DNA of 64,000 bases from Candidatus Brocadiia bacterium (GCA_050015075.1 JBEKCB010000006.1:32001-96000); one strand, 5' to 3'; positions 1,666-33,003 are shown, numbered from the stretch's first letter. Program-made: numbers and translations. The notes: generated from the sequence alone by a model not told the origin.

Positions 1666-1677
1666 GAGGTGATGACC

Positions 1678-2288: not shown

Positions 2289-2483
2289 ATATGGTCCTTT
2301 GAAAAGTGCTTCTGGAGCTTTTCGGCAAGATGCACCGGATTCTTATTGAAACTGTGACAGCATAAGTGTTATGTCGTTGTATCGAGCCTCTGTTGGGCGT
2401 GTCGTTGGATTAGATTACAAAGGCGCTCGGCGCGTGCGAGGAGATTCTTAACCTTCGCAGGTATCAGCAAAGTCACAGCCAAT

Positions 2484-2539
2484 CGTCCTCGTCGTCGTCC
2501 TCGCTCTCGGTCGTGAAGGTGAACGGTTCGAGGACGAGG
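2484..2539. repeat. CTCGTCGTCGTCCTCG...CGAGGACGAG imperfect inverted repeat between converging genes
   Basis: CTCGTC/GACGAG arms in the vapC-uvrA gap; may also act as a terminator. Confidence 0.4.
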
Positions 2540-2565
2540 CAGTTCTCGCCTGGGCGTTTATGCCT

Positions 2566-5435
<2,870 letters not shown>

Positions 5436-5439
<4 letters not shown>

Positions 5440-6428
5440 GGGAACGGCTCCTCCTCGACGGGCGCGGCGTTCGCCAGGCGCAGGCGCGCCTCGCGGACAT
5501 CGGCGGCGATGCGCTCGGCCAGCGACTCGGCCGACGGGAAAATCTCCTCGGCGCGGATGCGGTCCACGAACTGGACCTCGACATCCTGCCCGTAAAGGTC
5601 GCCGGAGAAATCCAGGATGTGCGTTTCCACGATGATCCGTTCCGAGAGATACGCCGGGCCGGTCGGCTGCAGCGTCGGCGCCGGGCCGATGTTCGTTACG
5701 GAATCGCGCATCGAGCCGCCGATCAGGCAGCGCGTGGCATAGACGCCCTGCGGCGGCCGAACCTCGTGATGCAGGTCCAGGTTGATCGTCGGGAAGCCGA
5801 TCCGCCGGCCGCGGCCCAGGCCGGCGATAACCGTGCCGCGGACGCACACGCGGCGGCCCAGCAGGCGCTCGGCCAGGCGCAGGTCGCCGGCGCGGATGGC
5901 CTCGCGCAGACGCGTGCTGCTGACCGGCGCGCCGTCGAGTTCCACCACCGGGACGGAGCGGGCCTCGAAATGGAATTGCGCCGCCAGACGGCGCATCAGC
6001 TCGAAGTCTCCGCGCCCGTCGCGCCCGAAGCGCGTATCGTGCCCGAGCAGCACGCCTTCCGCCTTCAGCCGGTCCACGAGAAGGTCCTTCACGAATTCCT
6101 CCGGTTCGAGCGCCGCGAGCGGCGGTTCGAACGTCAGCACGACCGTCGTGTCGAGCCCGAGCCGTTCGAAGAGCATCAGTCGGTGGTCCAGCGACAGGAT
6201 TTGTCCCCAGGACGCGCCATGCGGCAGGCGGGGCTTGCCCGTCAGGGCCGCGCGCGGCGGGCGGTCGAACGTGACGACGACGGCGTCGCCGCCGGTCTCG
6301 CGCGCCCAGGCGAGCAGGCGCCGCAGCACGCTGAGGTGCCCGCGGTGCACGCCGTCAAAAGTGCCAAGGGTCACCTTGGCCTTCGTGAACGGGCCGATCG
6401 CGGATGTGAGACCGTGGAACGTTTTCAC
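5436..6428 (-). CDS. ribF: Bifunctional riboflavin kinase / FMN adenylyltransferase
   Basis: [32 protein letters not shown]. Confidence 0.95.
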
Positions 6429-6528
6429 ATGTCACCGGACGCAAGTGCCTCGCTGCGCCAGATCATATCGGCAGGAGAAGCTACGGCCGCCCTGCGCCGC
6501 GCCGTATTCTTCCCGTTGTTCCTCGGCG

Positions 6529-8304: not shown

Positions 8305-8359
8305 AGAGCGCGCTCCTCAGATAATCAGGTCATCGCAAGGCGCATACTCGAAACGCTGC

Positions 8360-8388
8360 ATTATAATCCGATCCGCCCGCGGCTTCAA
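8360..8388 (-). promoter_or_regulatory. sigma70 promoter for the chaperone-ribF-uvrA unit
   Basis: TTGAAG-N17-TATAAT on the minus strand. Confidence 0.7.
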
Positions 8389-8418
8389 GGCATCCCTGAC
8401 TGAGCGGGAACGCAGACC

Positions 8419-8447
8419 TTGACACGCTCGCCGGGCGGTGCGATAAT
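8419..8447 (+). promoter_or_regulatory. sigma70 promoter for the cobalamin operon
   Basis: TTGACA-N17-GATAAT with extended -10 TG. Confidence 0.8.
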
Positions 8448-8468
8448 CCGACGAGTTGTTGCAACGCT

Positions 8469-8653
8469 CACAGGCGCCCGCGAGGGCGTGAAGGGAAGAC
8501 GGTGAAATTCCGTCGCGGTCCCGCCGCTGTGATCGGGGACGAAAGCCGCATCGCGCGCAGGAAACTGCGCGCGCTTGGCCACTGTTCGGGGCGATCCCCG
8601 GACGGGAAGGCGCGGCAAGTAGGATGATCCGAGAGCCAGAAGACCTGCCTGTG
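8469..8653 (+). promoter_or_regulatory. Cobalamin (AdoCbl) riboswitch
   Basis: AAGGGAAgaCGGTGaAATTCCG, CCCGCCGCTGTGA, GCCACTG, GGGAAGG, B12 box GAGCCAGAAGACCTGCC; closing stem CACAGGC/GCCTGTG; upstream of cob/btu genes. Confidence 0.95.
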
Positions 8654-8884
8654 CGCGCTTCGCTTCATGTCGCATGGCCCGCTCGCAGAGCGGGACATGC
8701 TAAGGCTCCGAGGCTGGGCTGATGAAGATGCGGCTGGGCGGCCACACCGATTGCTCCCCTGCGCCTTCGAGGCAAGGGGCATATTGTTGTTCCAACCCGC
8801 GCGCTCCATCCCTCGACCTCCGCCTCATGAAGTAACCCCGTCCGCGGCCTCCGGAAGAGAGTCCGCCATGGAAAGGAGAGGGAC

Positions 8885-9985
8885 GTGAGCAGTCAGCGTT
8901 ATCCTGGTCGCACGGTGAGGTCGCGCAGGTCGGCGCCGGCGTTTGGGGTGGGCGCGTTCACGCTGATCGAGATGCTGGCCGTCATCGCCATCATCGGTAT
9001 CCTGGCCGGGCTGCTTCTGCCCGCGATCACCGCCGCGCGCGAGCGCGGTCGCGAGGCCGCGTGCAGCAGCAACCTGCGCCAGCTCTTCATGGCCACGGAG
9101 ATGTACTGCAACCATTTCGATGAGTACTACTTCCCCGCCGCCCGCGACGTGAACACGACCAACCTCGAACGCTGGCACGGCATCCGCCAGCAGACCGGCA
9201 CCGATCCGGTGACAAGTGCGCCGATATACACCCCGTTCGACCCGAGCCTGGGCAAGCTCGCTCCGTACCTCTACATCAACACCGTCGTCAACACCACCGG
9301 CACCGCGGGTAACACCGGCACCGTCGAGGCGCAGATCAAGCAGTGCCCCACTTTCGCCGGCAAGTGGATCGGCGCGGGCGCTTATGAGATCGGCTGCGGC
9401 GGCTACGGCATGAGCCACCTGTACGTCGGCAGCCATGAATACAAGACGCCGGTCTACTATACGAGCGACGTGGTGAGCGCGCCGAGTACTTTCGACGACC
9501 TGACCGCCGTCGAATGCGGCTCCAACCGGCATGAAGTGCGCGTGCCGGAGCAGACGCTCCTCTTCGCCGATGCGGCCGCGCCGGACGCCAATTTCTCCGG
9601 CAAGGTCATCGAGTACTCCTTCGCGGAGCCGAACTACTTTACCAATTCCGGGCGGTGGGACCCGACGCTGCCGCCCTGGGGCGACTTCCATCCCGATCCG
9701 AACTATCCGCCCGACACCGTGGACCTCTCGCACTCGGACAATCCGTCGCTCCATTTCCGGCACACCGGCAATGCCAACGTCCTCTGGTGCGACGGGCACG
9801 TCAGCAGCGAGGGGCCGCTGTTCTCGCGGACGCTGACCGCGACGATCTTCTCAACCGGCTTGCAGACGTCCGTGGACTACTCGACGTACGGGCTCGGATG
9901 GTTCGGCGCCGACGACAACTCGGCCTTCCGGCTCGAGAAGAATACCGCGCAGTGCGTGCAGATCCCTGTTCCACCGGCGGAATAA
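8885..9985 (+). CDS. Prepilin-type N-terminal cleavage/methylation protein with H-X9-DG motif (DUF1559-like)
   Basis: GA|[29 protein letters not shown]...CSSNLRQL; C-terminal [15 protein letters not shown]. Confidence 0.9.
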
Positions 9986-10600
9986 ATGGCTGAATATCTC
10001 TACCTGGTCAGGCACGGCTCCACCGGGCCGGCGCGCGACGGCCGATATCTCGGCCGCACCGATCTTCCGTTGGACGCCGCCGGCCGGTCCCAGGTCGAGG
10101 CGCTGGCGCAGTCGCTCCGCGTGAAACGCAAGTGCGGGCGATGCGTGTGCAGCCCGCTCCAACGCGCCGCACAGACGGCCGAGATTTTGCAGTCCGCGAC
10201 CGGTTGCGTGCCCGAAACCGACCCAGACCTGCGCGAGATTGACTTCGGCCGATGGGAGGGTAAGATGTTCAACGAAATCCGCGATTCCAGCCCCGAGGAA
10301 GTCGCCCAATGGGCGCGGTTCGCGGTGGATTTCGCGTTTCCGGGCGGCGAAAGCCTGCGCGACTTTCTCGACCGGGTCCGGCGCGCGGCGGACCGGCTCG
10401 CCGCCGACGACGCGGACACCGTTCTCGCGGTCACGCATGCCGGCGTCATCAAGATCATGCTCTGCCACCTGCTCGGACTCGAGGCGCGCCGGTACGTCGC
10501 GTTCGAGATCGCGACCGCTTCACTGACGGTCGTGCGCCTGTTCGAAGGGAAAGGCGTCCTGTCGGAAATGATCCGCGTCGAGCGGCCGGAGCCGAAATGA
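9986..10600 (+). CDS. cobC: Alpha-ribazole phosphatase (histidine phosphatase family)
   Basis: LVRHG, SPLQRA, LREIDFGRWEG, VTHAGVI; cob operon context. Confidence 0.85.
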   Translation: MAEYLYLVRHGSTGPARDGRYLGRTDLPLDAAGRSQVEALAQSLRVKRKCGRCVCSPLQRAAQTAEILQSATGCVPETDPDLREIDFGRWEGKMFNEIRDSSPEEVAQWARFAVDFAFPGGESLRDFLDRVRRAADRLAADDADTVLAVTHAGVIKIMLCHLLGLEARRYVAFEIATASLTVVRLFEGKGVLSEMIRVERPEPK

Positions 10601-19994: not shown

Positions 19995-21115
19995 GAGAGG
20001 TCCTTCTTCAAAGCGATATCGCGCACGAGGCCGACAATGCGGTTGGCCTCGGACGCGCGATCTCGGAACCATGCCTGCACGCCCCGCTCGTAGGATCGCC
20101 AGGCGTCCTCATCCGTCAACAGCATGCGCGCCGCCTCCACGAGCCGCTCGAAGTCCCCGCCGCAGACGATGCCGGCGTTCCGCTCCGCCAGCGAGCCGCC
20201 TGAATCCACAGAGAGAGAGAGAATGGGCATCCCGGCCTGGGCGGATTGGACGAAAGTCTGAGGGAAGACGCCCTCCGAGGAACTCGTCGAGACAAAGATG
20301 CGATGTTGTGCGAAGAGCGCGTTGGCCTCGTCGAAGGGCAGGCCTTCGTAGAGCATAAGATTGTCCGGCGCGCGTCTTCGCAACCGCGCGATGTCCTGGC
20401 TCGGATCGGGCTGGCAGACGAGGGTGAAGGAGTGACCCGGCAGCCGCGCTGCCAGGTCAACGAAAATGTCCGCGTGCTTGCCCACCGCGTCGCGGCCCAC
20501 CCACAGCGCGCCCGCGCGCGGTCCCTCTGCCGCCGGCGGCGGTGGCGGCAACGGCGCGGGAAAGATCACCGCCGCGCGGCCATACGTGCGCCGGAGAACC
20601 TCGGCCTGCTGCGCGGTATCGCAGGAGAGCGCGCGGGCGTGACGCATGGCGAACTCGTGAAAGCGTCGGGCGAGGGGCGACAACGAGCTGTCGGGCTGGC
20701 CCGAGCATTCCTTGTCGCTGGCGCTGCGGCACATGTGCAGATGAGTTCTCCCCGCCGCAAACGCCGCGAAACTCACCAGGCCGTTGACGCCGCTGGCGCT
20801 CTGCGTGATATACAGGTCGTGCCGCCCCGCCAGCAGGCGCCAGACCAGCCGCGCCAGTTGCGCCGCCGTGAAGTGAGGACCCGGCGACATGCGAATCACG
20901 GGGCGTATCGTCATGCCCGGTTCGCGGCGCACCGGCTGGCCGATGTCCGCCACGTAGAGCGTCACCTCGAACCCGCCCGCCTGCGCCAGAAGCCGGGCGA
21001 TCTGGAGCGACTCCAATTCCGCGCCGCCGAACGGAAATCGGCATCCCGGCTCCGTGAGGGAGCACGCGGCCAGTGAGATAATCCCAACGGAGATCGGAGA
21101 ATCAGGGCGCTTCAT
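19991..21115 (-). CDS. Glycosyltransferase family 4
   Basis: FGGAELES, LWVGR...KH, FVSTSSSEGVFPQTFVQS. Confidence 0.85.
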   Translation of the reverse strand: MKRPDSPISVGIISLAACSLTEPGCRFPFGGAELESLQIARLLAQAGGFEVTLYVADIGQPVRREPGMTIRPVIRMSPGPHFTAAQLARLVWRLLAGRHDLYITQSASGVNGLVSFAAFAAGRTHLHMCRSASDKECSGQPDSSLSPLARRFHEFAMRHARALSCDTAQQAEVLRRTYGRAAVIFPAPLPPPPPAAEGPRAGALWVGRDAVGKHADIFVDLAARLPGHSFTLVCQPDPSQDIARLRRRAPDNLMLYEGLPFDEANALFAQHRIFVSTSSSEGVFPQTFVQSAQAGMPILSLSVDSGGSLAERNAGIVCGGDFERLVEAARMLLTDEDAWRSYERGVQAWFRDRASEANRIVGLVRDIALKKDLS

Positions 21116-21245
21116 CTTTCGCAGGCGATCCTCTTCAGGGGCTGAAATTCATGCGTAGCGTAGGTTCCCTGGGAAAAAGAGTCAAGTGGGCGAGGTTCAG
21201 GGCCTCGCGCAAGCGGTTGCGCGCTCTCTTCTGCCGCCCGTTTGT

Positions 21246-21287
21246 CGGCTATATCCTGTCGCAGTATACTGCCGCAGGATATAGCCG
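21246..21287. repeat. 42-bp near-perfect palindrome
   Basis: CGGCTATATCCTG-TC-GCAGTATACTGC-CG-CAGGATATAGCCG. Confidence 0.85.
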
Positions 21288-21580
21288 CCCGCTTTAACGC
21301 GAACGGGCTTGGGGCCGCGAACGTCTTTGGCTTTCTTCGCGCTCACTGTCTCCGCTCGTCCCTCGGCTATGTTCTGTCACGGTATACCTCCGTGGAATAT
21401 GGTCACCCGCTTCCGCGAAAAATGGACTTGGGGCCGCGTACCGCTCCGGCTTTCGCCGATCGGCCACGCCGCATGCGTTTTCCTTATCATTTCTTCAACG
21501 CCTTTCCCCGCCGGCGATCGGGGAGCGGAAGAAATGTCACAGCGGAACCGACGCATTTTACGCCCGCGCCGTTATTGTTC

Positions 21581-21609
21581 TTGACAGTGGGATTCACGGC
21601 GGATAGATT
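21581..21609 (+). promoter_or_regulatory. sigma70 promoter
   Basis: TTGACA-N17-TAGATT; GGAGG RBS before the ATG at 21664. Confidence 0.7.
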
Positions 21610-21663
21610 CCGCTGGTGTGTGTCGCTGGATTCCGAGAATAACCCGCTGCCCACGGAGGTCCT

Positions 21664-23910
21664 ATGTCAAGGATAGCCGCCTTCACCGCTTTGTTGATCC
21701 TGCTTGCGCCCTCGGCGCTGTTCGCGCAGACGCCTGAAGGCCCGGGCACGTGGGCCTTTCAGCCGGCTCGGGACGAGTTCCGGCCCGATGCGTTGCTGGA
21801 CCTGCGCTCGCTCAACGAGAAACAGGCCGGCGAATCGGGGTTCGTGAAGGTGGATGCCAACGGCGATTTCGTCCTCGGCAACGGCGACCCGGTGCGGTTC
21901 TGGGCGGTCAATACGAACGTCGGGCGCGATAAGCCGTTCCACGCCCGGCCGCTCTGGTCGGAGGCCGAGCCGGACCTGGCGCATCACGCCCGGTTCCTGG
22001 CCAAGCGCGGCGTGAACATGGTCCGGTTGCACGCGCACCTCGACCCCGGGCCCAAGGGCAAGCTGACGGAGTTCGATCGGGCCGAGCGCGACTGGATCTG
22101 GCGGGCAGTCGCCGCGATGAAGAAAGAGGGCATCTACGCGACCATCTCGCCGTTCTGGGCTGAGGGCTCCAGCGTCGGCCCGAGCTGGGGCATTCCCGGC
22201 GTGACGAAGGAGCAGAGCGCCGCCAGCCTGCTCTTCTTCGACCCGACGATGCAGGAAGGTTACCGGGCCTGGCTGAAAGCCCTCTACGCCGAGACGAACC
22301 CTTACACCGGCATCCCGCTGGCGAAGGACCCGGCGGTCGCGATCATCCAGCTTCAGAATGAGGACAGCCTGCTGTTCTGGACGTTCAACAGCATCCAGGG
22401 CGAGCAGCGGCGACGGCTCTCCAGGCTGTTCGGCGATTTCCTCAAGAGCAAATACGGCTCGCTGGACAAGGCGAAGCCGGCGTGGGGCGGCGCCGACAAC
22501 AAGGATGACGACCTCGCCGACGGCGTCGTCGCGCTGGACAATATCTGGGAACTGACCCAGGAGCGCAGCGGCGCGCGGGCCCGGCGGCTGGCCGATATGA
22601 CCGAGTTCCTCAGCCGGACGATGGACGACTTCAACCGGAAGATGGAGAAATTCCTCCGCGAGGAACTCGGCTGCAAACAGCTCATCAACGCGGGCAACTG
22701 GCAAACGGCCGACATGGTCAAGCTCAACGATGCGGAGCGGTGGAGCTATACGGCCAACCAGGTGCTGGCGGTCAACCGCTATTTCGACGGGATTCATATC
22801 GGCAAAAACAACGGCTGGGCGATCGAAAACGGAGACCAGTTCACGTCGCCCTCGGTGCTCCTCGAGCCGAGGCAACTGCCGGTCAGCCTCAAGCTGGTCA
22901 AGGGATTCCCGATGATGGTCACCGAGTCCGCCTGGGTCATGCCGGACGCGCACGCGAGCGAGGGGCCGTTCCTGGTGGCGGCTTACCAGTCGCTGTCCGG
23001 CGTGGACGCCTACTTCTGGTTCGCCACCGACACCGACGAATGGACTCCGCCGCAGTCGGCCAACGGCTACATGCCGTCGCAGGGCAAATGGCTGTTCGCC
23101 AACCCGGACATGCTGGGCGGTTTCCCGGCGGCCGCGTTGATGTATCGCATGGGCTACGTTCGCCGCGGAGAGCCGGTGGTGCACGAGGAGCGGTCGCTGG
23201 AGAACATTTTCCAGCGGCGCGACCCGATCATCGCGGAAGGCGCCGGGTTCGATCCCAACCGCAACTCCGGGAACATCGCCCCGGACTCGTCGGTCAAGGG
23301 AGGCGTCAACCCGCTGGCATTCCTGGCCGGCCGGGTGGAAGTCGTCTATGGCGGGCAGCCGCAGGCCAGCAAGGTGGCCGATCTGAAGCCGTTCATTGAC
23401 GAACCGAACAAGGAAGTGCGCAGCGTCACCGGCGAGCTGACGTTCAACTACGGCAAGGGCTTCTGCCTGCTGAACGCGCCGAAAGCCCAGGGCGTCGCGG
23501 CGTTCTTCAAGAACCGGAAGGACTTCAAGACTGACGACGTCGAGATCGCCTCCGACAACGATTACGGAACCGTGCTCGTCGTCTCGATGGACGACAAGCC
23601 GATCCGCGAATCCGGCAAGCTGCTCGTGCAGACGACGACGCAGTGCCGGCCGACCGGCTGGCGGGAGAAACCGGTCACGATCAAAGTGAAAGAAGGCACT
23701 TTCCCCGGCTTCGAGGTCGTCAATTTCGGCAAGGCGCCCTGGCAGGTGACGCGAGCCCGAGTCACGCTGACCATCCACAACCCCAGCCTGGCCAAGGCGA
23801 CGGTGCTTGACGCCAACGGCAATGCCGCCGGGGAAGCCAAGTTGGAGAGACGAGGCGACGAGGTCGAGTTCAGGTTTCCGGAAAACGCCTTGTACGTCAT
23901 CCTCCAATGA
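21664..23910 (+). CDS. Secreted glycoside hydrolase, clan GH-A-like TIM barrel
   Basis: Signal peptide; GVNMVRLH, NPYTGIPLAKDPAVAIIQLQNE (acid/base), PMMVTE (nucleophile). Confidence 0.75.
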   Translation: MSRIAAFTALLILLAPSALFAQTPEGPGTWAFQPARDEFRPDALLDLRSLNEKQAGESGFVKVDANGDFVLGNGDPVRFWAVNTNVGRDKPFHARPLWSEAEPDLAHHARFLAKRGVNMVRLHAHLDPGPKGKLTEFDRAERDWIWRAVAAMKKEGIYATISPFWAEGSSVGPSWGIPGVTKEQSAASLLFFDPTMQEGYRAWLKALYAETNPYTGIPLAKDPAVAIIQLQNEDSLLFWTFNSIQGEQRRRLSRLFGDFLKSKYGSLDKAKPAWGGADNKDDDLADGVVALDNIWELTQERSGARARRLADMTEFLSRTMDDFNRKMEKFLREELGCKQLINAGNWQTADMVKLNDAERWSYTANQVLAVNRYFDGIHIGKNNGWAIENGDQFTSPSVLLEPRQLPVSLKLVKGFPMMVTESAWVMPDAHASEGPFLVAAYQSLSGVDAYFWFATDTDEWTPPQSANGYMPSQGKWLFANPDMLGGFPAAALMYRMGYVRRGEPVVHEERSLENIFQRRDPIIAEGAGFDPNRNSGNIAPDSSVKGGVNPLAFLAGRVEVVYGGQPQASKVADLKPFIDEPNKEVRSVTGELTFNYGKGFCLLNAPKAQGVAAFFKNRKDFKTDDVEIASDNDYGTVLVVSMDDKPIRESGKLLVQTTTQCRPTGWREKPVTIKVKEGTFPGFEVVNFGKAPWQVTRARVTLTIHNPSLAKATVLDANGNAAGEAKLERRGDEVEFRFPENALYVILQ

Positions 23911-24005
23911 CGGACCGTCTCGAAGATTCAGTTGGCATGTTCGGGAATGCCATGAAATGACTTGAAGTGGCTGTGCATCCGGATTATGCTGATGAGATGC
24001 CTGCA

Positions 24006-24206
24006 ATGAAGAAAGAATACGACTTCTCAAAGGGCCAACGCGGCAAGTTCTGCCGGCGTGACGCACGCTTCAATCTGCCAATCTATCTTGAAAAGGACGT
24101 GCGCAAATTCGTCGAGGGGATTGCAGGCAAGAAGAAGCGGGACGTATCCACGGTCGTAAACGACCTTCTCAAGTCGGACATGCGGCTTGCGAAAGCCATA
24201 AAGTGA
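24006..24206 (+). CDS. Orphan antitoxin-like ribbon-helix-helix protein (BrnA/CopG-like)
   Basis: MKKEYDFSKGQRGKF...PIYLEKDV...STVVNDLLK. Confidence 0.75.
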   Translation: MKKEYDFSKGQRGKFCRRDARFNLPIYLEKDVRKFVEGIAGKKKRDVSTVVNDLLKSDMRLAKAIK

Positions 24207-24302
24207 GATGGTCGCGGGCACCCGCTCTTCGCAGCTCCGCTGCTTCGGCGGGCGGAGAAGAGTCGGGCTGGGTATGATGTTCATGCAGAGGAAGGCTGAG
24301 AC

Positions 24303-24569
24303 ATGGGCAAGCAGTATCAGGAATTTGCGATCAACTACTATCAGGACGCAGACGGCATTTTCACCGCCCAGGTTCCCGCCATTCGCGGCTGCGTAGCTTC
24401 AGGGAGGACGCTTGAGGAAGCCTACCGGAATGCGGCGGATGCCATCGAGAGTTGCCTGGAGGCGCGCGCCAAAGTGGCGGCAACGGCCCCGCTGTCCATG
24501 CTAGTCCCGAGCGCCCTCCTCGTTGGCCCGCAACCTTTCAAGAATCATCGCAGCAACTTCAGGCGCTGA
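24303..24569 (+). CDS. hicB: HicB-family antitoxin, C-terminus probably disrupted
   Basis: FTAQVPAIRGCVASGRTLEEAYRNAADAIESCL; last 69 nt overlap the TIR gene on the opposite strand. Confidence 0.8.
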   Translation: MGKQYQEFAINYYQDADGIFTAQVPAIRGCVASGRTLEEAYRNAADAIESCLEARAKVAATAPLSMLVPSALLVGPQPFKNHRSNFRR

Positions 24570-25493
24570 AAATTGTTGGATGTCAATATAACCGTCAATT
24601 CCGTATAGGCCATCTATTTGCGCTTCGTCAAAGCGGAAGAACATAATGGCAGAACTCTCACGTTTCTTCATCAGGTCTCGGATAGGCCGCCACTCAAGCC
24701 CACACCATTCTTTCTTTTGATAATCGGCACAAAGGAACACGGCTATCAACTCAGATTGCTCGTGGTATAGACGCTGTAAGTACGTGTCGAGATTAGGGCG
24801 CGCAAACTCCGGTTTGTGATATTTATCGTAAAGGATCCGTTTCCTTCCCAATACTCTACCAAGGTCTTCCGCGACCATCTGCACGAAAGCGCGCCGCTCG
24901 CCGGGAAAGGATAGACCGACTGCAAATCTCTTTCTCTGCTTGGCATCCTCTTTGCACGACGCTGGCGCTACAGCGGCCGGCGGCGTTACGCATGGCGAAG
25001 GCGCGACGGCTTCGCGTTCACGAAGCGCCTTACTGAACTCCCGTAAATTTTCCAGAATCGGGCCGGCCTGGGCTGTAGGCTTTGGTAGTATGCCGAGTTC
25101 TCTCCGAATCCCTGGCTCCCAATCAGCCGCCCGCCGATAATCCGAAGCGAGAAGCGAAAGCCCGCAAAAAAAATCTTCAATGTCGGAAGTCCCAGATTCC
25201 CCCCTCACACAAGCAAGAACCTTATCCAATTGGCGTTGCGCTCGCGTCCGCCGCACCTCGTCCATATCATCTTCACTGACAACGCTGTACTCAGCCGCCG
25301 GAAGGCAGCTATGTCTAGGTTCTTCTTTGAAGTGTGTTGCCAAGCGGTCGGCGATGGCCTTGGAATCGGTAACATAGAAGACGTGGGGCATTCCAGGGAT
25401 GTCGGGAACCTTATCCATGCCTCTTCCCTGCATCTGGGGAACCGGCGAACAGGCTATGAGGAGGTATCGCCCGGCGCTCCTTTCCTTGCTCAT
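24501..25493 (-). CDS. Protein with unknown N-terminal domain and C-terminal TIR domain
   Basis: FAVGLSFPGERRAFV...YDKY...LYHEQSELIAVFLCADYQKKEWCGLEW; ATG overlaps the RM gene stop (ATGA). Confidence 0.88.
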   Translation of the reverse strand: MSKERSAGRYLLIACSPVPQMQGRGMDKVPDIPGMPHVFYVTDSKAIADRLATHFKEEPRHSCLPAAEYSVVSEDDMDEVRRTRAQRQLDKVLACVRGESGTSDIEDFFCGLSLLASDYRRAADWEPGIRRELGILPKPTAQAGPILENLREFSKALREREAVAPSPCVTPPAAVAPASCKEDAKQRKRFAVGLSFPGERRAFVQMVAEDLGRVLGRKRILYDKYHKPEFARPNLDTYLQRLYHEQSELIAVFLCADYQKKEWCGLEWRPIRDLMKKRESSAIMFFRFDEAQIDGLYGIDGYIDIQQFSAPEVAAMILERLRANEEGARD

Positions 25494-28400
25494 GCCTTCG
25501 CCCCCGCTTCGGCTACGCCCGGCCAAGCGTAAGCGTGGCTCTTGGCAATCGTGTAGTTGGCGTCCAGCGTCGGTTGCAGAAGGACGATCCGCGCCAGCCG
25601 GCGCGCCATCGCGGTCACTTCGCGGGCTTCTTCGGCCTTCAACGCGCGGCCGAGCAATTCCTGTTCGCGGTAGCTGAGCCACTTCTTGATAACCTGATAC
25701 CCGCCGATGTAATACTCCCACACTTTCGCGGGGATGTTCTTCCAGTAGGCTACGTCATTCAGGTACACGTCTGTTGTGTCCGCGCCCAACAGCGCAATGG
25801 CCTTGCTCAGTGAAAGCCCGCGCGCTTCGGCGGCGTTGCGCAACGCTTCCAATTCGGCCTTGTCATACGGACGTTGCACAATCCGCCCCTTGGCCGGCAT
25901 GGTGACACCTTCCTTGCCCGCGTGCCCCCAACCGGCGGTTACGGCGAGGTCCGCCGCGTCCGGGTCCAAATTGCCGCCGCCCACTTTCGTCAGTAAGCCT
26001 ACGGTTCGGAAGATCGGCTCCAACTTGCCGGACGTGACGCCTGTTACTTCGGCTTCGGTATCGAGCAACGCCGCCAATTGCCGGCCCAAGGCGGCGGACG
26101 CTTCCAGCGTCTTGCGCGAATCGGGAAGCGGAATGCGCGGCCAGTCGCGCCGGATTCCGTCGGCGTTTTCGGCTAGGTACGCCGGGCTGTATCCCACGGC
26201 CAGGGCGTGAAGCCAGATTGTACCTGCCGCGTCCGCGCCGGCGTCAGGGTCATTGATTCCCAATCCGGCCAGGTACGCGCGCGCGGCGGAGGAAAGATTC
26301 GCCGTCGGCTCGGAAGGCCCACTTGCATCATGGAATAGTCCCTTTGCTCTCCCGGCCTCCTTCTGCAAGCGGATCGGCACGAAATAAGCGTCTGTGTGCA
26401 GAACGTGTTGGTCGGCGATATGGCCAACCAAGTGGAAAGTCGCGCCATCCGGCGCCTTCGCCGCGTGGCAGCGGATCAGAAGAAACCTGTTTCCATGCCA
26501 CGCTTGAGCCAGAAGTTCCGGGCGCACGCGGTTCCACAAGTTAGCGATTCGCTCAATATACGCCCACCGCAGGTCAAATGGTTTGAAAAGAAAACGCGCG
26601 ATGTTGCTGTCCCGGAATCCGCTCGCGGTCAACAATCGCTTGCGAACATCGGCCGCGCAGAATCCGGCCGCATCGGTTGTCAGCCCGGCGTGTAGGCGGG
26701 CAACATCTTCAAGTGCAACATTGGCGGCATAGTATGCCTTCATCCGGTCCGCAATGGTTTCTTTCTCAATTGCGTGAGTTCCTTGCTTCCTGTTATCATT
26801 CAATCCAAGCAAAGGTTCAGCTTCCGCCAACTCTACAACGGCGGGCCACGCCAAGTATCCTGTTGCGGTTTCGATTGGGCGGAATGAATAGGCATTCTCA
26901 TTACGTGGCTCGGCTTGCGTGTAGGCTGCATCAAATCGCTTAGCGTCCAAGGTGGCAAGTAGCTGGTGACGACGTTCTTCGGCTTTTGCCGCTTCCACGT
27001 CGTTTCGGAAAAGGACTTGCGCCTGCCCGCCAGCCTTGCGCGGCTTGCCGGTCTTGACCCATAGCGACGTTGCTACCCCCTGTTGTATGCCAGAAGAAAA
27101 GCCTCGAATCGCAAAGACGGTTTCACTCGTGCGTCCGTCCGAAGCGTACTCGGAAATCCTGCGGTCGCCGTGAAGGTTCTCAATCCAGAAGCGGTCGAAG
27201 GAATCCAGCAGGTGCTTGCGAAGGACCACAAACGACGGCTCACCCGTCCAAGATTGATTAGAGATGAAGGACACAACGCCCTTGCCACTCATCTCAGCAA
27301 TGCGCCTCTCGGCCAGGCGGAAGAAGCGAACGTACAAGTCGTCAAGGTAGTTCTTCGTTATCCCCCATTCCTTCAATCCCGCCTTGTACGGTTCAATCAG
27401 TCTTGCTTCTTCATCAAGTGCGACGCCTGCGAAACCGTTATATGGCGGGTTGCCCAGGACAACGAGTATCTTCCTGTCGCGCTTGACGTGTTCGGCGGCA
27501 TCCTTTTCCTGTTGCAGTTCTTCCATGAACCCCAAGACAGTTTGCTTCGGCTCCTTGGGCGGTTCCCAGCCGGTCAGGGCATTGGTCAGGTACACACCGA
27601 CGCGTTCATTGCTCTTGGCGGAGAGCGGAACGCCGAGTCTGTGAAGCAGCAATCCCAATTGCAAGTGCGATACGACGAAGGGTGCGGGGAGAATCTCAAA
27701 GCCGAATACCCGCGTCATGGCGGCCTTCTTCAAGTCCGAAGCAATCAGGGCGTCGCCGCCCTTGGCCTTCAGCGTTTCGGCAATCTTCTTCAGCACTTCC
27801 ACCAGGTACGCCGCAGTGCCGCAACAGGGGTCTAGCACGACAACGTTGGGATCGGCCAAGCCGTCGGCCAGGCCCAATTCTTCGCGCAGGACGGTATCCA
27901 CGCGAGCGACCTGGTATTGCACGATTTCGGGCGGCGTAAACCATACGCCCAATTCCTTCCGCAACTCCGGGTCGAAAGCTTCAAGGAACGGCTCATAGAA
28001 ATACTGGACGGCATGTTCGCCCTGAAACTTCTGGAAGAAGACGGCGCGGTCCACGCGGTTCAAGGCCCCGGTTGTCCAGTCCAGGACTTCCACAAGCTCC
28101 AGGTCGCCCAACTTTCTGGGCGTGGCGATCTGTTCATACAGGGCGCGGATGAAGGGGACGCGCAAGGAAAAAGCGCTCTCATGCCAGTTGAAGGCGTCTT
28201 CGCGCTCCGGGCGCTCCCTATGCCAGAGCACCCAGGCCGAAAAGACGCCGTAGAAGATCGTCTGAACCAATGTTGAGCGGAAGAAATGCGCGCCCTTTTC
28301 CCCTGTGAACTTCATTCCCAGGGCTTCTTCAAGCGCGCCGCGCACGGCGTCCAGGGCGGACAAGTCCTTGTGGTTTTCGACGCGGGCCCTGGCGTCGCGC

Positions 28401-29035
28401 GCGTAGGAAGCCAGAAACCAGGCCAGGTCTTGCGGGGCGGACAGGGGCGCGACGGACAGCATAACGCGCTTCAGGTATTCGCAGAAACGCGCGCCTTGCG
28501 CGGCTTCCTTTTGAGCGTCCTTTTCCTCCGCTGCTTTGCGCGGCTGTGCAGCCAATTTCCAAAAAGCCGACGCAGACTCGGCCAGCGTGAAGCGTTCCGC
28601 TGGAAGCGGATTACTTTGAGCGTCTCGCCCAAGCAACAGGAAATCGCGGTAATTCGTCACGAGTACAACGCCGTACTTCGCGGAGTACCGCTTGACCTGT
28701 TCGCTTTCGGCAACCTTCGTCACGTCCTCGGCCGGGCCTTTGACTTCCACCACGCCACGGGCGGGAAGTTGGCCTTGCATCCCCGGCGCGGTACTCCGCG
28801 CCATTGGGTTTGGATCATTCTTGCGAATCTGGTCCGCCGTGAAAAGGCCGAAGTCCGGTAAGCCCGCGCCCGAATCAGCCGGCGTCTGGACGCAGCGGAC
28901 CTTGGGCTTGAGGGTCTTGCCGATTTCGTCCAACAGATTCGACAAGGCAGGATAATATGACGTTTCGTCGGTAGCGGCCCCGGTATCGTGAATGTCGCGC
29001 ATGTGCTTCAGGTAGGCTTCAAGCGGATTCGTCAC
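25490..29035 (-). CDS. Single-polypeptide restriction-modification enzyme (N6-adenine MTase, N-terminal PD-(D/E)xK nuclease, Type ISP-like C-terminal specificity domain; no helicase)
   Basis: PDFGL...VEVK; YEPFLEAFDPELRKELGVWFTPPEIV; LDPCCGT; GNPPY; VWEYYIGGYQVIKKWLSYRE. Confidence 0.9.
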   Translation of the reverse strand: MTNPLEAYLKHMRDIHDTGAATDETSYYPALSNLLDEIGKTLKPKVRCVQTPADSGAGLPDFGLFTADQIRKNDPNPMARSTAPGMQGQLPARGVVEVKGPAEDVTKVAESEQVKRYSAKYGVVLVTNYRDFLLLGRDAQSNPLPAERFTLAESASAFWKLAAQPRKAAEEKDAQKEAAQGARFCEYLKRVMLSVAPLSAPQDLAWFLASYARDARARVENHKDLSALDAVRGALEEALGMKFTGEKGAHFFRSTLVQTIFYGVFSAWVLWHRERPEREDAFNWHESAFSLRVPFIRALYEQIATPRKLGDLELVEVLDWTTGALNRVDRAVFFQKFQGEHAVQYFYEPFLEAFDPELRKELGVWFTPPEIVQYQVARVDTVLREELGLADGLADPNVVVLDPCCGTAAYLVEVLKKIAETLKAKGGDALIASDLKKAAMTRVFGFEILPAPFVVSHLQLGLLLHRLGVPLSAKSNERVGVYLTNALTGWEPPKEPKQTVLGFMEELQQEKDAAEHVKRDRKILVVLGNPPYNGFAGVALDEEARLIEPYKAGLKEWGITKNYLDDLYVRFFRLAERRIAEMSGKGVVSFISNQSWTGEPSFVVLRKHLLDSFDRFWIENLHGDRRISEYASDGRTSETVFAIRGFSSGIQQGVATSLWVKTGKPRKAGGQAQVLFRNDVEAAKAEERRHQLLATLDAKRFDAAYTQAEPRNENAYSFRPIETATGYLAWPAVVELAEAEPLLGLNDNRKQGTHAIEKETIADRMKAYYAANVALEDVARLHAGLTTDAAGFCAADVRKRLLTASGFRDSNIARFLFKPFDLRWAYIERIANLWNRVRPELLAQAWHGNRFLLIRCHAAKAPDGATFHLVGHIADQHVLHTDAYFVPIRLQKEAGRAKGLFHDASGPSEPTANLSSAARAYLAGLGINDPDAGADAAGTIWLHALAVGYSPAYLAENADGIRRDWPRIPLPDSRKTLEASAALGRQLAALLDTEAEVTGVTSGKLEPIFRTVGLLTKVGGGNLDPDAADLAVTAGWGHAGKEGVTMPAKGRIVQRPYDKAELEALRNAAEARGLSLSKAIALLGADTTDVYLNDVAYWKNIPAKVWEYYIGGYQVIKKWLSYREQELLGRALKAEEAREVTAMARRLARIVLLQPTLDANYTIAKSHAYAWPGVAEAGAKA

Positions 29036-29195
29036 GGCGTTGCACCCTCGCGTCTGCAACCTCGCGTGAAAAGCAGGCGGGGCGGAAAGCCGTGCGAGTT
29101 CCGACGGATCGGGTCGCGTTCCCTATCCGCCCCGTGTGAGGATTCTACAATTCCCCGCCCGAAAATGCTACCCGGCGTCAAGAGACAGGGCATGT

Positions 29196-29577
29196 TCCGG
29201 GGAAACCCTATTTCCTCCGCCTTCGCATGCCGCGAAAACGAGGCCTGGGCGATTGTCCCAGGCTGATACACGCGATTGGATTCGTTTTTTCAGATGGACT
29301 TGTCGCGCCAAGAGGTCGTTCGTCGGCCTTCGCGAAGCTGCGTCAATGGAGCGGGGATTTAGCGGCATGCGGGGGCCGATGCGGCATCATTCCGGCTCCT
29401 TACGGCGGCATTACGACGGCATGAAAGCGGCATGGTTGTAGTCCGGGGAAATAAACCCTATTTGCTCCGCCTTCGCGTGATGGCGTCAATGAAGAGGGGA
29501 TTTGGCGGCATGCGGAGGCCGAGACGACATCATTCCGGCTCCTCACGGCGGCATGGCGACGGCATGAAAGCGGCATG
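29196..29577. repeat. Degenerate tandem duplication of a ~140-bp unit; first copy interrupted by a ~100-bp insert
   Basis: 29326-29434 matches 29469-29577; 29196-29226 matches 29442-29476; GCCTTCGC flanks the insert. Confidence 0.8.
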
Positions 29578-29597
29578 ACTATCAGAATGAGTCTGAT

Positions 29598-29613
29598 TGT
29601 TCCACGTGAAACA
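29598..29613. promoter_or_regulatory. parS: parS centromere-like site (ParB binding)
   Basis: TGTTCCACGTGAAACA matches the TGTTNCACGTGAAACA consensus; intergenic. Confidence 0.85.
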
Positions 29614-29658
29614 ATTTATAACTTATCTTATGTTCCTGATCCTGCAATGGCGGACTGC

Positions 29659-29795
29659 GGGCTGTTGAAAAAGGCCATTGCCGCGTCTTCGCCGCGTCAT
29701 TCCCGCGAAAGCGGGAATCCAGATCATTGCGCGGTGGGGCGAATTTTGGATTCCCGCTTTCGCGGGAATGACAAAGCGACTTTTATAGCGGCCCT
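29659..29795. mobile_element. MITE-like element containing an inverted pair of GTCATTCCCGCGAAAGCGGGAATCCA REPs
   Basis: Perfect 26-bp inverted pair (29696-29721 / 29747-29772); imperfect outer IR GGGCTGTTGAAAAAG / CTTTTATAGCGGCCC; ACTGC on both flanks. Confidence 0.7.
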
Positions 29796-29808
29796 ACTGC
29801 CCGCCGCT

Positions 29809-30969
29809 TCAGCCGATGGCCTCGCGGATGCGGTGCAGGGCGTGGCGGATTTTGTCGAGCGACGTCGCGTACGAAAGGCGCAGGAACCCTTCGCCGTATT
29901 TCCCGAACGCCGTCCCGGCGAGCGTCGCCACGCTGCCCTGGTAGAGTAATTTGTCGGCCAGCTCGCGCGAGGTGACGCCCAGTTCGCTGATGTTCGGGAA
30001 GACGTAGAACGCCCCGTGCGGCATGCAGCAATGGATGCCGGGGATGTCGTTCAGGCCCCGCACGATCGCGTCGCGCCGGCGACGGAATTCCTCCACCATC
30101 TTGCGAGCTTCGCCCTGGTCGCCCGTCAGCGCGGCGATGCCGGCCATCTGCGTGAAAGCCGCGGTGCACGAGTTGCTGTTGCTGATCAGGCGGCTGGTCC
30201 AGGCGGCCAGCTCGCGGCGCATCACGCCGTAGCCGAGGCGCCAGCCGGTCATGGCGTACGTCTTCGAGAACCCGTCGAGGATGACCGTGCGCTCCTGCAT
30301 GCCGGGCAGCGAGGCGATGCTGACGCTCTCGCCCTCGTACAGAATCCGCGAGTAGATTTCGTCCGAGAGGACATAGCAGTCGTGTTCCTGCGCCTCGGCG
30401 GCCACGACCTCGAGGTCGGCCCGAGTCAAGACGCCGCCGCACGGATTCCCCGGCGAATTGAGGATGATCAGCTTGGTTCGCGGGGTCATGAGCGACCGGA
30501 ATTCGTCCGGGTCAAAGCTGAACTGGCGCTCTTCGCGGAGCCGCATCGGCACGGGAACGCCGCCCACGAAGTTGATCATGCTTTCGTAGATCGGGAATCC
30601 CGGGTTCGGATAGATCACTTCGTCTCCGGGATTGAGGAGCGCCATGATCGTGAAGAAAATGATCATTTTGCCGCCGGGGACGACGACGATGTTCTCCGCG
30701 GTCACCGGGATCCCGCGCGTCCGGGCCACTTCTTCGGCGATGGCGCGCCGCAGCGCCGGGAGGCCGGCGGCGGGCGTGTAATGCGTGTAGCCTTCGTCGA
30801 GCGCGCGCTGGGCGGCATGCCGGATGTCGGAGGGCGTGTCGAAATCGGGTTCGCCGATTTCCATGTGGATGATTCTCGCGCCTTGGGACTCCAGCGCTCG
30901 CGCGCGCGCCAGGACGTCAAACGCCGTTTCCGTGCCCAGTTTTCGCAAACGGTCGGCAAATGGCTTCAT
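29809..30969 (-). CDS. PLP-dependent aminotransferase class I/II (aspartate aminotransferase-like)
   Basis: GEPDFDTP, NSPGNPCG, SDEIY, GFSKTYAMTGWRLGY. Confidence 0.93.
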   Translation of the reverse strand: MKPFADRLRKLGTETAFDVLARARALESQGARIIHMEIGEPDFDTPSDIRHAAQRALDEGYTHYTPAAGLPALRRAIAEEVARTRGIPVTAENIVVVPGGKMIIFFTIMALLNPGDEVIYPNPGFPIYESMINFVGGVPVPMRLREERQFSFDPDEFRSLMTPRTKLIILNSPGNPCGGVLTRADLEVVAAEAQEHDCYVLSDEIYSRILYEGESVSIASLPGMQERTVILDGFSKTYAMTGWRLGYGVMRRELAAWTSRLISNSNSCTAAFTQMAGIAALTGDQGEARKMVEEFRRRRDAIVRGLNDIPGIHCCMPHGAFYVFPNISELGVTSRELADKLLYQGSVATLAGTAFGKYGEGFLRLSYATSLDKIRHALHRIREAIG

Positions 30970-31109
30970 GGCCGCCCTCCAGTCCACCCGTTACCGACTT
31001 ATGTATAACGAACTGGGCGGCGAGGAGTCAATGCCAATCTTCGGGCCAGAGAGAATGGATGAGAGCGGGCGGCTTGAGGAGGGTTCGAGCTTCGGTATTT
31101 TCCGTGCGG

Positions 31110-31478
31110 CTAATTCCGCATGACCTTGACGGTTTCATGCAGCACGGTCTCGGGATCGAGGTCGCTCAGAATGAATTTCGAGACGCCCGCGCGGCGCGCC
31201 TCTTTCGAGAGTCCCTTGACCTTGGGAGCGTTGAACATCACGACCGGAACGTGCGGATCGGATTTCTTCAGGCTTTTGACGAGTTCCCAATCTTCCCCGT
31301 GACCGACCTTCGCGCTGAGGATGACGACGCTCATGTACCGTTCCGCGATGATGGCAAGGCCGACGGTCCCGGAGAGGGCAATTTCCGCCTCGTAGCCGGA
31401 TTGAACAAATTGCTCTTGCAATCTGTCCACCGTACGCCGATCCTCGTCAATGATCAGAACTCTGCGCCGGGTGATCAA
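31110..31478 (-). CDS. Single-domain atypical response-regulator receiver
   Basis: RVLIIDED...VVILSAKV...PVVMFNA...GVSKFILSD; TTG start with GGAGG RBS. Confidence 0.8.
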   Translation of the reverse strand: MITRRRVLIIDEDRRTVDRLQEQFVQSGYEAEIALSGTVGLAIIAERYMSVVILSAKVGHGEDWELVKSLKKSDPHVPVVMFNAPKVKGLSKEARRAGVSKFILSDLDPETVLHETVKVMRN

Positions 31479-31799
31479 ACGAACCTCCGGAAGAGAACAT
31501 AACCTTCGACGGACGCCCACAGAACCCCTATCTCTGTAGGAATTTACATGACGCATTGTATCAGGAAGAGGTTGCCCTGTCAATCATTTTTTTGTGGCTC
31601 GACTACAAAAACGCTGGACTCAGTTGTAAGGCGCGTTGTACCGGCATGTTATGATACGGCGCTTTTCGAATCCAACGGCATGGATCTTGCTGGCGCGGCC
31701 AGTTATTTCGTCTCGAAAGATCCTTTTTCGTCGCCAGGAGATTTTCGGTTCGAAGGAACACAGGGAAGCTACCGAGTCATAAATGGAACAGGCTTCGCT

Positions 31800-32912
31800 T
31801 CAAAATGGAACAACATTTTTCTCAGCACTTTTCTTTTCGTAAAGCAATTCATTTTTTTCGACCATCGTCTTGACCGAGAATTCGCGCTCAACGCGCTCAC
31901 GCGCGGCCGCACCGAGTCGCCGGCGCAGCGCCGCATCGCGCAGAAGCCGCAGGATGCGCTCCGCCAGCGCGGCTTCGTCGGCGGGCGGCACAAGGAATCC
32001 GGTTTCGCCTTCGACAATCAGTTCCGCGCAGCCGCCTACATTCGTGGCCACCGCGGGCTTCCCGCAGGCCATAGCCTCAAGGATCGCATTGGGCATTCCT
32101 TCCCAGGACGATGGCAGCGCGATGAGGTCCATCCTCGCGAGGAGCGGCCGAGTGTCGGACAGCCATCCCAACCAGCGTACGCTGCTCGAGAGGCCCAGCC
32201 GGTCAGCTTCCGCCCTGCACTGCGTTTCCAGCCGCCCGGTTCCGGCGAAGGCGAATACCGTTTGCGGGGCCTCGCGCACCACTCGCGCCGCGGCCCGCAG
32301 AAGCAAGAGCGGGTTCTTCTGCCGGTCCAGCCGTCCGACAAAAGCCACCATCAGCACGCCTTCCGGCAGGCGCCACTCCGGCGGCGGCGCCAGCACCGGA
32401 GCATCGCAATCGGATGGGTCCACGCCGTTCGGCACCACCACCAGCTTGTGCATCGGCACATGCGCGCGCCGATGGGTGTATTGCCGCGCCGATTCCGAAA
32501 CACACGTGAAGACGTCCGTCAGCCGCTGCGTCAGGAATTCGACCCAAACGTGCCGGAGCCGTGGCTCCTCGACCCGGATGGACGCTATTTTTGTGCCGAT
32601 TCCCGACCGGATTGCGACCAGACTGCCGACAAAGTTGGCATGGAACAGGAATGTGTGCAGCACATGCGGCCGGTTCGCGCGCAGCGCCCGGCGCAGCCGC
32701 AGCCACGCGCCGAGATCCCACCAGCCGCGCATGTCAATCGGGATGACTTCGATCCCTTTTTCCTTGAGCCGACCGAAGATCGGGCCGCGGCCGGAGAGGC
32801 ATGCGACGATCGGCTCGAACCTCCGCCGGTCCAGGCGCGTGGCCAGCTCGTACAGCGCCTTCTCCGCGCCGCCGATTTCCAGTTCCGTAATGAGATAGAA
32901 AATCCTTCGCAT
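31800..32912 (-). CDS. Glycosyltransferase family 4
   Basis: LITELEIGGAE, VGRLDRQK, PSSWEGMPNAILEAMACG. Confidence 0.93.
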   Translation of the reverse strand: MRRIFYLITELEIGGAEKALYELATRLDRRRFEPIVACLSGRGPIFGRLKEKGIEVIPIDMRGWWDLGAWLRLRRALRANRPHVLHTFLFHANFVGSLVAIRSGIGTKIASIRVEEPRLRHVWVEFLTQRLTDVFTCVSESARQYTHRRAHVPMHKLVVVPNGVDPSDCDAPVLAPPPEWRLPEGVLMVAFVGRLDRQKNPLLLLRAAARVVREAPQTVFAFAGTGRLETQCRAEADRLGLSSSVRWLGWLSDTRPLLARMDLIALPSSWEGMPNAILEAMACGKPAVATNVGGCAELIVEGETGFLVPPADEAALAERILRLLRDAALRRRLGAAARERVEREFSVKTMVEKNELLYEKKSAEKNVVPF

Positions 32913-32968
32913 GGCTGTACCCTTTCCGCGCCGCCGGAGATTGTAGCAGCCCGCGCCGAGCCGGACAA

Positions 32969-32996
32969 TTGCCAGCGCGCGTCCAGCGGCTATAAT
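32969..32996 (+). promoter_or_regulatory. sigma70 promoter of tilS (probably leaderless transcript)
   Basis: TTGCCA-N16-TATAAT, 7 nt before the GTG start. Confidence 0.6.
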
Positions 32997-33003
32997 AGAG
33001 CGC

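Follow-up and report, generated by a model that had tools for sequence, protein, structure and literature searches.

Does the restriction-modification (RM) gene found in this stretch of DNA from a Candidatus Brocadiia bacterium form, together with the TIR-domain gene that follows it, a two-gene anti-phage system, or have two separate defense genes come to lie side by side? The window, by which we mean the whole 64,000 nt stretch analyzed (GCA_050015075.1 JBEKCB010000006.1:32001-96000), contains a low-GC island with a gene for a single-chain Type IIG RM enzyme, a gene for a 330 amino acid (aa) protein, which we designated X-TIR after its orphan N-terminal domain (domain X) and its C-terminal TIR domain, and a fragment of a HicB-like antitoxin gene (Table 1). 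A first-pass annotation, made from the sequence alone, considered the RM and TIR genes to be translationally coupled and to form an RM-plus-guard unit, with X sensing the inhibition of restriction. On balance, we lean toward another reading, namely a small defense islet where two independently acting anti-phage genes are stacked at a chromosomal hotspot and are at most co-transcribed; since the pairing is seen only here, we regard them as two defense genes parked together and not as a new two-gene system.

The evidence that carries this reading comes from the loci of related genes. RM orthologues with 43–73% identity were compared at 11 further loci, retrieved from 61 relatives (23 with matches at E ≤ 1e-20) and from 401 sampled genomes of the phylum (15 with matches at E ≤ 1e-60), and none of these loci has a TIR or X match (0/4 plus 0/7; tblastn, E ≤ 1e-3). 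Six of them extend at least 5 kb downstream of the RM gene, and the other five stop 27–624 bp past it. At the six longer loci, the next gene codes for an HSDR_N-RAMA protein, a lipoprotein-like protein of unknown function, a convergent PcRGLX-like protein, an asparagine synthase, a convergent LolA or a hydrolase-like protein.

The comparison from the side of the TIR gene gave the same picture. Its TIR domain is around 50–70% identical to those of more than 350 proteins, which differ from one another in all their remaining parts, and no RM gene related to the one studied here (tblastn, E ≤ 1e-3) was found at any of 81 loci of this subfamily, which comprise the best 80 of 438 metagenome relatives and one genome locus. 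In the 42 longest of these loci the TIR domain is fused to STAND NTPases (12), LRR-Roc-COR (4), TPR only (3), an EAD1, a kinase or a cyclase-like domain (one each), or to regions without a Pfam match (20). Their 78 immediate neighbors include SLOG, STAND, GASH, Z1, AbiU2, Schlafen, HNH, HicB and housekeeping genes, and no DNA methyltransferase. Additionally, in all three plasmid contexts examined (11 matches), mobile, stand-alone genes of 290–340 aa with an "unknown N-domain plus TIR" organization occur without RM genes. Judging from these loci, the TIR subfamily is a promiscuous module and the RM family is normally solitary. What one would expect of an RM guardian, an effector gene linked to RM genes across loci, was thus not found in the loci compared, and this counts against the two-gene unit of the first-pass annotation, which had itself named a lack of linkage between TIR homologues and RM genes as a ground for refuting it.

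The junction between the two genes also agrees with this reading. The TGA stop codon of the RM gene overlaps the ATG at 25493 as ATGA, read as gcgaaggcATGAgcaagg; the overlap noted in the first-pass annotation is therefore present in the sequence, whereas the coupling deduced from it is undermined by the existence of three different start calls and by the occurrence of the same ATG elsewhere without a TIR gene. Public gene calls start the TIR gene so as to give 330 aa (JGI, Logan and ENA), 310 aa (JGI) or 305 aa (NCBI). In a DNA alignment, the RM locus of a relative, G002, has nearly letter-identical sequence over the final eight codons of the RM gene and over the twelve bases ATGAGCAAGGAA; the corresponding ATG opens there only a 19-codon open reading frame (ORF) ahead of a lipoprotein-like gene, with no TIR gene, and homology between both loci stops 12–15 nt past the ATG. 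Ten other RM orthologues end shortly past a conserved WP or a motif like it; their tails are unrelated and lack the ATGA. Because the ATG and the next nine nucleotides recur in G002 without a TIR gene, this ATG belongs to the RM cassette, as part of its 3′ flank, and, as far as the alignment can tell, the body of the TIR gene starts just behind a recombination breakpoint. We propose that the head-to-tail arrangement would be local and recent, having arisen when the TIR gene became attached to a mobile RM cassette at the 3′ flank. Translational coupling of the two genes is possible, and a 4-bp overlap is by itself poor evidence for a system.

Both genes sit in a chromosomal site that receives variable cargo. 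Blastn comparisons showed that positions 20,004–24,220 and 29,211–33,000 of the window match contig C76 of a genome of the same genus, G001, with 87–92% identity, while the interval between them is unaligned. At the same site, G001 has 3.8 kb of different cargo, consisting of a HigA-like antidote gene and a gene for a fused BsuBI/PstI-type methyltransferase-nuclease (PADLOC MTase_II, 8e-246; REase_II, 2.2e-123). The content of the island is complete with three items: the RM gene with about 150 bp upstream of it, the TIR gene and the HicB-like fragment. As the first-pass annotation had perceived, this block is comparatively AT-rich, with a GC content of 0.49–0.60 versus 0.65–0.70 in the surroundings. 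The GC content at third codon positions (GC3) is 0.70 in the RM gene and 0.56 in the TIR gene, and 0.75–0.88 in four flanking genes; the gap between the RM and TIR genes indicates that they probably have different histories. We also compared the window with contigs from four peat metagenome runs, which come from four studies, possibly from one campaign, and are part of the 24 sequencing runs listed for this stretch, none of which is an RNA run. In all four, contigs depart from the sequence of the window at positions 24,220–24,236, the left border of the island. The island is foreign DNA in a variable hotspot of the chromosome of this peat bacterium, and the same flanks surrounding a different defense cargo in G001, together with the contigs diverging at the left border, identify the hotspot as a swap site. 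Within the island, we found no tRNA gene in a tRNA scan, no Rfam match at E ≤ 0.01, and no excess of promoter-like or terminator-like sites over the shuffled expectation; the repeats that pair both sides of the island are only short and chance-like.

Table 1. Coordinates of the features of the island, counted from the first nucleotide of the window.
Feature	Coordinates	Strand	Details
Low-GC island	24221..29210	.	4990 bp; indel relative to the same-genus genome G001
HicB-like antitoxin fragment	24303..24569	+	88 aa; convergent with the TIR gene, 69-bp overlap of the TIR 3′ end
X-TIR gene	24501..25493	-	330 aa from ATG 25493; alternative starts 25433 (310 aa) and 25418 (305 aa)
TIR domain	24504..24932	-	Residues 188-330; E267 (24693-24695) is the candidate catalytic Glu
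Pro/Ala-rich linker	24933..25043	-	Residues 151-187; pLDDT <50 at 164-181
Domain X core	25068..25388	-	Residues 36-142
RM 3′ tail AEAGAKA + stop + ATGAGCAAGGAA	25478..25514	-	Common only to the relative G002; homology breaks right after
Single-chain Type IIG RM enzyme	25490..29059	-	1189 aa, TTG start
Specificity and C-terminal region	25640..26806	-	Pfam Type_ISP_C, residues 752-1140
Methyltransferase motif IV NPPY	27440..27451	-	Invariant in 4/4 aligned orthologues
Methyltransferase motif I VLDPCCGTAAY	27806..27838	-	Core DPCCGT invariant in 4/4 aligned orthologues
PD-(D/E)xK nuclease motif LPD...EVK	28739..28861	-	D69, E105 and K107, counted from the TTG; invariant in 4/4 aligned orthologues

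The RM gene is intact and codes for the nuclease, the methyltransferase and the specificity region in one polypeptide with its catalytic motifs kept, which bears out the description of a nuclease-methyltransferase-specificity protein of around 1180 aa in the first-pass annotation. The TTG start yields the N-terminus MQTRGCNAVT, in agreement with the MQKRGCN of two orthologues; position 29,035, where the first reading had placed the end of the gene, corresponds to a GTG eight codons inside the 1189-aa frame. The protein matches Pfam families Type_ISP_C (2.3e-30) and N6_Mtase (3.2e-9) and the PADLOC model REase_MTase_IIG (5.7e-92 and 3.5e-65). Its design is that of Type IIG/IIL enzymes such as MmeI and DrdV, in which one chain combines a PD-(D/E)xK nuclease at the N-terminus, a gamma-class N6-adenine methyltransferase and, at the C-terminus, the specificity region, and, as in these, the target-recognition part varies between orthologues: identity is 29–52% in this part (around positions 26,340–27,240) and 83–92% at both ends of the gene, as expected for swapped target-recognition domains. 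It resembles the Type ISP enzymes LlaGI and LlaBIII in the C-terminal Type_ISP_C region and in the methyltransferase region, to which matches with PDB sequences are restricted (LlaGI, 1e-17; DrdV 7lo5, 4.9e-17; LlaBIII, 3.9e-15). However, no helicase-like ATPase motor family appears among its Pfam matches, and it has 1189 aa versus the 1406 and 1578 aa of the solved LlaGI and LlaBIII chains, which indicates a Type IIG/IIL enzyme and not a translocating Type ISP; of the "ISP/IIG-like" label given earlier, only the second half should be kept. The enzyme itself is ordinary, with nothing unusual in it, and this copy differs from those at the 11 orthologous loci in preceding a TIR gene.

Other observations concern RM orthologues and their surroundings. 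The closest orthologue, 73% identical and from G001, is followed by a gene for a 363-aa HSDR_N + RAMA protein (L033 8710-9801; PADLOC PDC-S14, 3.6e-18), so that the place held here by the TIR gene is taken there by another accessory gene associated with RM. The orthologue from a third genome, G003 (L035 8603-13285), is an open frame of 1560 aa with in-frame insertions of the repeat peptides VAQPPSAV and SQPGAAVPH and with a segment whose match to Pfam Y1_Tnp (IS200-like), at 1.4e-4, falls just under the cut-off; in sequence, these insertions look like repeat elements that entered without breaking the frame. The ORFs downstream of this G003 gene were discarded as antisense artifacts of a convergent gene. 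In each of the four metagenome runs, contig depth over the conserved C-terminal segment of the RM gene (25,547–25,823 of the window) exceeds that over its other parts by a factor of 5–10, with loose contig ends at 25,731 and 25,771; from this raised depth, these peat communities probably contain many related Type IIG genes side by side.

The product of the second gene consists, as first described, of an unrecognized N-terminal domain, a Pro/Ala-rich linker and a TIR domain retaining the Glu. Pfam TIR_2 matches residues 194–307 (1.8e-7; 32.1 bits, with a cut-off of 28), and no other Pfam family is found in the 330-aa protein at E ≤ 0.1, nor a STAND NTPase domain. In the AlphaFold model, the predicted local distance difference test (pLDDT) is around 90 over most of residues 188–330, with a dip to 58–81 around residues 251–300; Foldseek gave a probability of 1.00 to the TIR domains of MyD88, AbTir and RUN1, and the VIA Z values were 14.7 for TIRAP, 11.1 for SARM1 and 10.3 for AbTir. 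A profile of the TIR family had no matches among PDB sequences at E ≤ 0.01 or at E ≤ 10. The sequence KKEWCGLEW is present, and E267 (in W263-C-G-L-E267) is invariant in the 40 aligned family members and is placed just ahead of a model helix spanning residues 268–276. Judging from its W-x-x-x-E context, E267 is a candidate equivalent of the Glu that is catalytic in SARM1, AbTir and plant TIRs, where it stands at the start of the helix after strand C. The frame is open over 330 codons, and in the family alignment of 40 sequences the protein keeps each of the 25 invariant columns. According to the models, the protein has a genuine TIR domain at its C-terminus.

TIR domains are modular NAD+-cleaving effectors of NTPase-centered conflict systems (PMC7159879), and the TIR modules of TIR-STAND/NLR-like, Roc-COR-TIR and TIR-EAD proteins are 50–70% identical to the one described here; X-TIR, in contrast, has no NTPase, repeat or EAD domain, and its partner X is an orphan. 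With Thoeris it has in common that it is a short protein with TIR as the sole recognizable domain. However, it matches no PADLOC family at E ≤ 0.1, the ThsB models included, and there is no ThsA-type gene, no SIR2, SLOG or Macro family and no PADLOC Thoeris match among the ORFs scanned, which cover the part of the window between 17 and 36.6 kb. Of the 18 flanking ORFs compared with Pfam in this interval, 13 had no match, several of them being alternative ORFs on the opposite strand, and five had only housekeeping families or domains of unknown function; PADLOC gave no matches with 16 neighboring proteins. The absence of a known partner nearby that was stated in the first-pass annotation is hence supported, and the PADLOC run that it recommended names only the RM gene of the pair. 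Likewise, we found no described Type IIG-TIR system in the full-text literature searched, including PMC11350192 and PMC13069673 without their supplements, so that the pair corresponds to no described system in that literature, as had been supposed.

Members of the TIR subfamily were also observed in other settings. In the Bradyrhizobium plasmid NZ_CP088281.1 (L157 3887-6420), a subfamily TIR gene is found 50 bp after a gene annotated as "dsDNA nuclease domain-containing protein", by MPN/ThiF genes, and at another locus (L047 7090-10807) the gene for a 177-aa protein of the subfamily, consisting of TIR only, forms a row of three with the genes on either side of it, for a SLOG cluster3 protein and for an NB-ARC-TPR protein.

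The N-terminal region of around 150 aa gave no match with Pfam, NCBIfam or PADLOC models. An exhaustive phmmer search of 1.84 billion representative proteins with X retrieved three proteins: X-TIR itself, P0125 (3.2e-26) and P0126 (7.4e-24). P0126 has 630 aa, organized as a 315-aa extension, X, a linker and a TIR domain, and is 57% identical to X-TIR over residues 36–328. P0125, a metagenome protein of 1004 aa, contains an unrelated 450-aa extension, X, a linker and an RtcR/PspF-like sigma-54 AAA+ ATPase; X occupies there the place of the CARF-type sensor region usual in RtcR/PspF-like proteins, and no Pfam helix-turn-helix domain is reported for it. X was not found in 131 other genomes of the class, in 400 other sampled genomes of the phylum or in the rest of this genome. 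Fold models of X are of low confidence, with a pLDDT of 45–75 in the full model and of 39 in an AlphaFold model of X alone with its two relatives, and the ESM Atlas look-alikes gave no usable feature match, only structure rows with TM ≤ 0.35. The presence of X ahead of two differing outputs, a TIR domain and a sigma-54 AAA+ ATPase, suggests a regulatory position and fits a sensor or adaptor role; on its distribution and placement, X would thus be an extremely rare domain with the signature of a sensor module. The claim of an N-terminal sensor domain therefore agrees with its position in the two relatives, whereas the proposed association with restriction is not borne out by the RM and TIR families.

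P0125 and P0126 also have in common a segment, RYFLM-HC-VG, just ahead of the X core. The first 35 residues of X-TIR are no more similar to these two relatives than expected by chance (678 and 679 of 2000 shuffles reach the score). The resemblance of RYLLI, at residues 9–13, to the RYFLM strand of the relatives was considered as proof that translation starts at the ATGA, and was rejected because it is at chance level in the shuffle test.

In the reading that we prefer, gene 1 would be a stand-alone Type IIG/IIL enzyme, with the PD-(D/E)xK nuclease, the gamma-class N6-adenine methyltransferase and the target-recognition region acting in one chain, which, like others of its family, would methylate its own asymmetric site and cut unmodified DNA. 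Gene 2 would code for a single-protein sensor-effector acting by abortive infection, where X would keep the C-terminal TIR NAD+-consuming enzyme inactive until an infection cue let the TIR domains assemble; by analogy with other bacterial TIR effectors, NAD+ would then be destroyed and the infected cell would stop growing. The two genes, arranged head to tail, may be co-transcribed.

Several observations weigh against two independently acting genes. The RM and TIR genes are co-oriented, with a gap of at most 72 bp and possibly a 4-bp overlap; together with the HicB-like fragment they make up the entire content of one indel, and contigs bridge their junction with no mismatches in all four peat metagenome runs compared. 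Read the other way, the 12 nt common to G002 could be what is left of an ancestral gene downstream, and the pair would then be older than it appears. X-TIR lacks the 315–450 additional N-terminal residues of both X relatives, it is the sole TIR_2 gene of the genome, and no known TIR partner was found near it in the scans of 18 ORFs with Pfam and 16 with PADLOC. Furthermore, in another genome of the phylum (G293; L160 7369-19322), the sole TIR_2 gene is directly upstream of Type I hsdM-hsdS-hsdR genes, on the same strand; its product, a protein of 563 aa that carries the TIR domain at its N-terminus, has 24% identity with X-TIR. This is one case in five TIR-bearing genomes checked for a nearby N6_Mtase gene, and it adds at least one further instance of TIR-RM adjacency, in which the RM type differs and the TIR protein is unrelated. 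Finally, the linkage counts given above refer to RM-orthologue and TIR-subfamily loci, and the loci of P0125 and P0126, the most informative relatives, lie outside them.

The best surviving alternative, which we nonetheless deem unlikely, is that the TIR gene is a 5′-truncated remnant: a gene of the P0126 type would have lost its front when it recombined onto the flank of the RM cassette, leaving an inactive, unregulated or decaying product. This would explain the extra N-terminal residues of both relatives and the lack of a significant match of X-TIR to the RYFLM-HC-VG segment that precedes their X core, as well as the loss of homology with G002 at the very start of the gene; the neighboring HicB-like ORF, which covers less than the complete profile, also appears truncated. 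Nevertheless, a decaying gene is difficult to reconcile with an open frame of 330 codons that keeps every invariant family column, with a TIR fold predicted with high confidence and with a sequence that is unchanged across several peat metagenomes. Stand-alone TIR proteins of around 300 aa are, moreover, common on plasmids, and two relatives allow only a weak inference that the long form is ancestral.

That the two genes form an RM-plus-guard unit seems to us unlikely as well. X-TIR would be made from the RM transcript by translational coupling, and X would watch the Type IIG enzyme or phage anti-restriction proteins, blocked restriction releasing the TIR NADase. RM guardian abortive-infection systems are an established concept, with PrrC-EcoprrI and PARIS as examples (PMC12707154), and X-TIR resembles them in being a putative suicide effector beside an RM locus as a second line; PrrC, however, is an anticodon nuclease within a Type IC locus and PARIS comprises AriA/AriB, neither having a TIR domain, and the RM linkage of X-TIR is not conserved. 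The ATGA overlap, the sole occupancy of one island, the stable junction, the regulatory position of X ahead of interchangeable outputs and the TIR gene adjoining a Type I RM operon in G293 all speak for a guard, and the first four codons retained behind the RM gene of G002 are compatible with the loss of an ancestral partner. Against it stand the lack of TIR or X genes at the RM orthologue loci, of related RM genes at the TIR loci and of methyltransferases among the TIR neighbors, as well as the three candidate starts, with the NCBI and one JGI gene call skipping the overlapping ATG, the lack of significant homology of the first 35 residues to the X relatives and the unlike GC3 of both genes; with a single instance, there is also no co-variation to rely on. 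We give similarly little credence to the elaboration that the locus is an undescribed RM-guard module in which the four codons of G002 are what is left of an older two-gene cassette after losing its guard, and X is a portable sensor for TIR or sigma-54 output. The stub common to G002 does leave room for an ancestral RM-partner arrangement and, if the guard were real, it would be the first TIR-based guardian of a restriction enzyme within the literature searched.

Known signal-effector pairs are encoded together, and around the island there is no ThsA, SLOG, SAVED or caspase-like gene among the 18 ORFs compared with Pfam and the 16 proteins with PADLOC, nor do the PADLOC ThsB models match. A role of X-TIR as a Thoeris ThsB-like producer of a nucleotide that activates an effector encoded elsewhere in the genome can hence be given very little credit, even if bacterial TIR domains can make signaling nucleotides (PMC13069673 and PMC7159879) and the TIR-only gene of L047 lies between SLOG cluster3 and NB-ARC-TPR genes.

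The third item of the island is an 88-aa HicB-like ORF that matches Pfam HicB_lk_antitox with 3.5e-6 and 27.6 bits (cut-off 27), over positions 7–55 of a profile of 123. The 96 bp upstream of it leave no room for an ORF of the size of HicA, so that the arrangement of a HicAB toxin-antitoxin pair, with HicA beside a full-length HicB, is not found here. The HigA-like antidote gene of G001 occupies the position equivalent to that of this fragment.

Outside the island, a minus-strand ORF of 799 aa (21,667–24,066) was considered as a third component and rejected, as it is the antisense of a real gene for a secreted 748-aa protein. Just outside the left border, both the genome studied here (G000) and G001 contain a conserved 79-aa ORF (...EYDFSKGQRGKF...; positions 23,967–24,206 of the window, plus strand, and L127 5001-5240), which matches neither Pfam nor PADLOC models. 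The intergenic sequence that lies upstream of the RM gene, from 29,211 to 29,780, is rich in repeats: it contains direct repeats of 112 nt (29,323–29,434 and 29,466–29,577) that are 86% alike, a pair of 27-nt repeats and a 33-nt inverted repeat (at 29,689–29,779). The summed contig depth in the four peat metagenome runs is around 800–10,000 in the bins covering 29,425–29,978, versus 1–50 in most of the other bins. On these sequence features the region looks like a high-copy element resembling repetitive extragenic palindromic (REP) sequences or miniature inverted-repeat transposable elements (MITE); it has no Rfam match, and copies of it are also present in G001, where the cargo has one in inverted orientation at its left border.

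Under the reading that we favor, of two genes that act independently, this locus would be a clean example of a defense hotspot stacking unrelated immune genes, here a restriction enzyme, a TIR effector and a toxin-antitoxin remnant, so tightly that they resemble operons.

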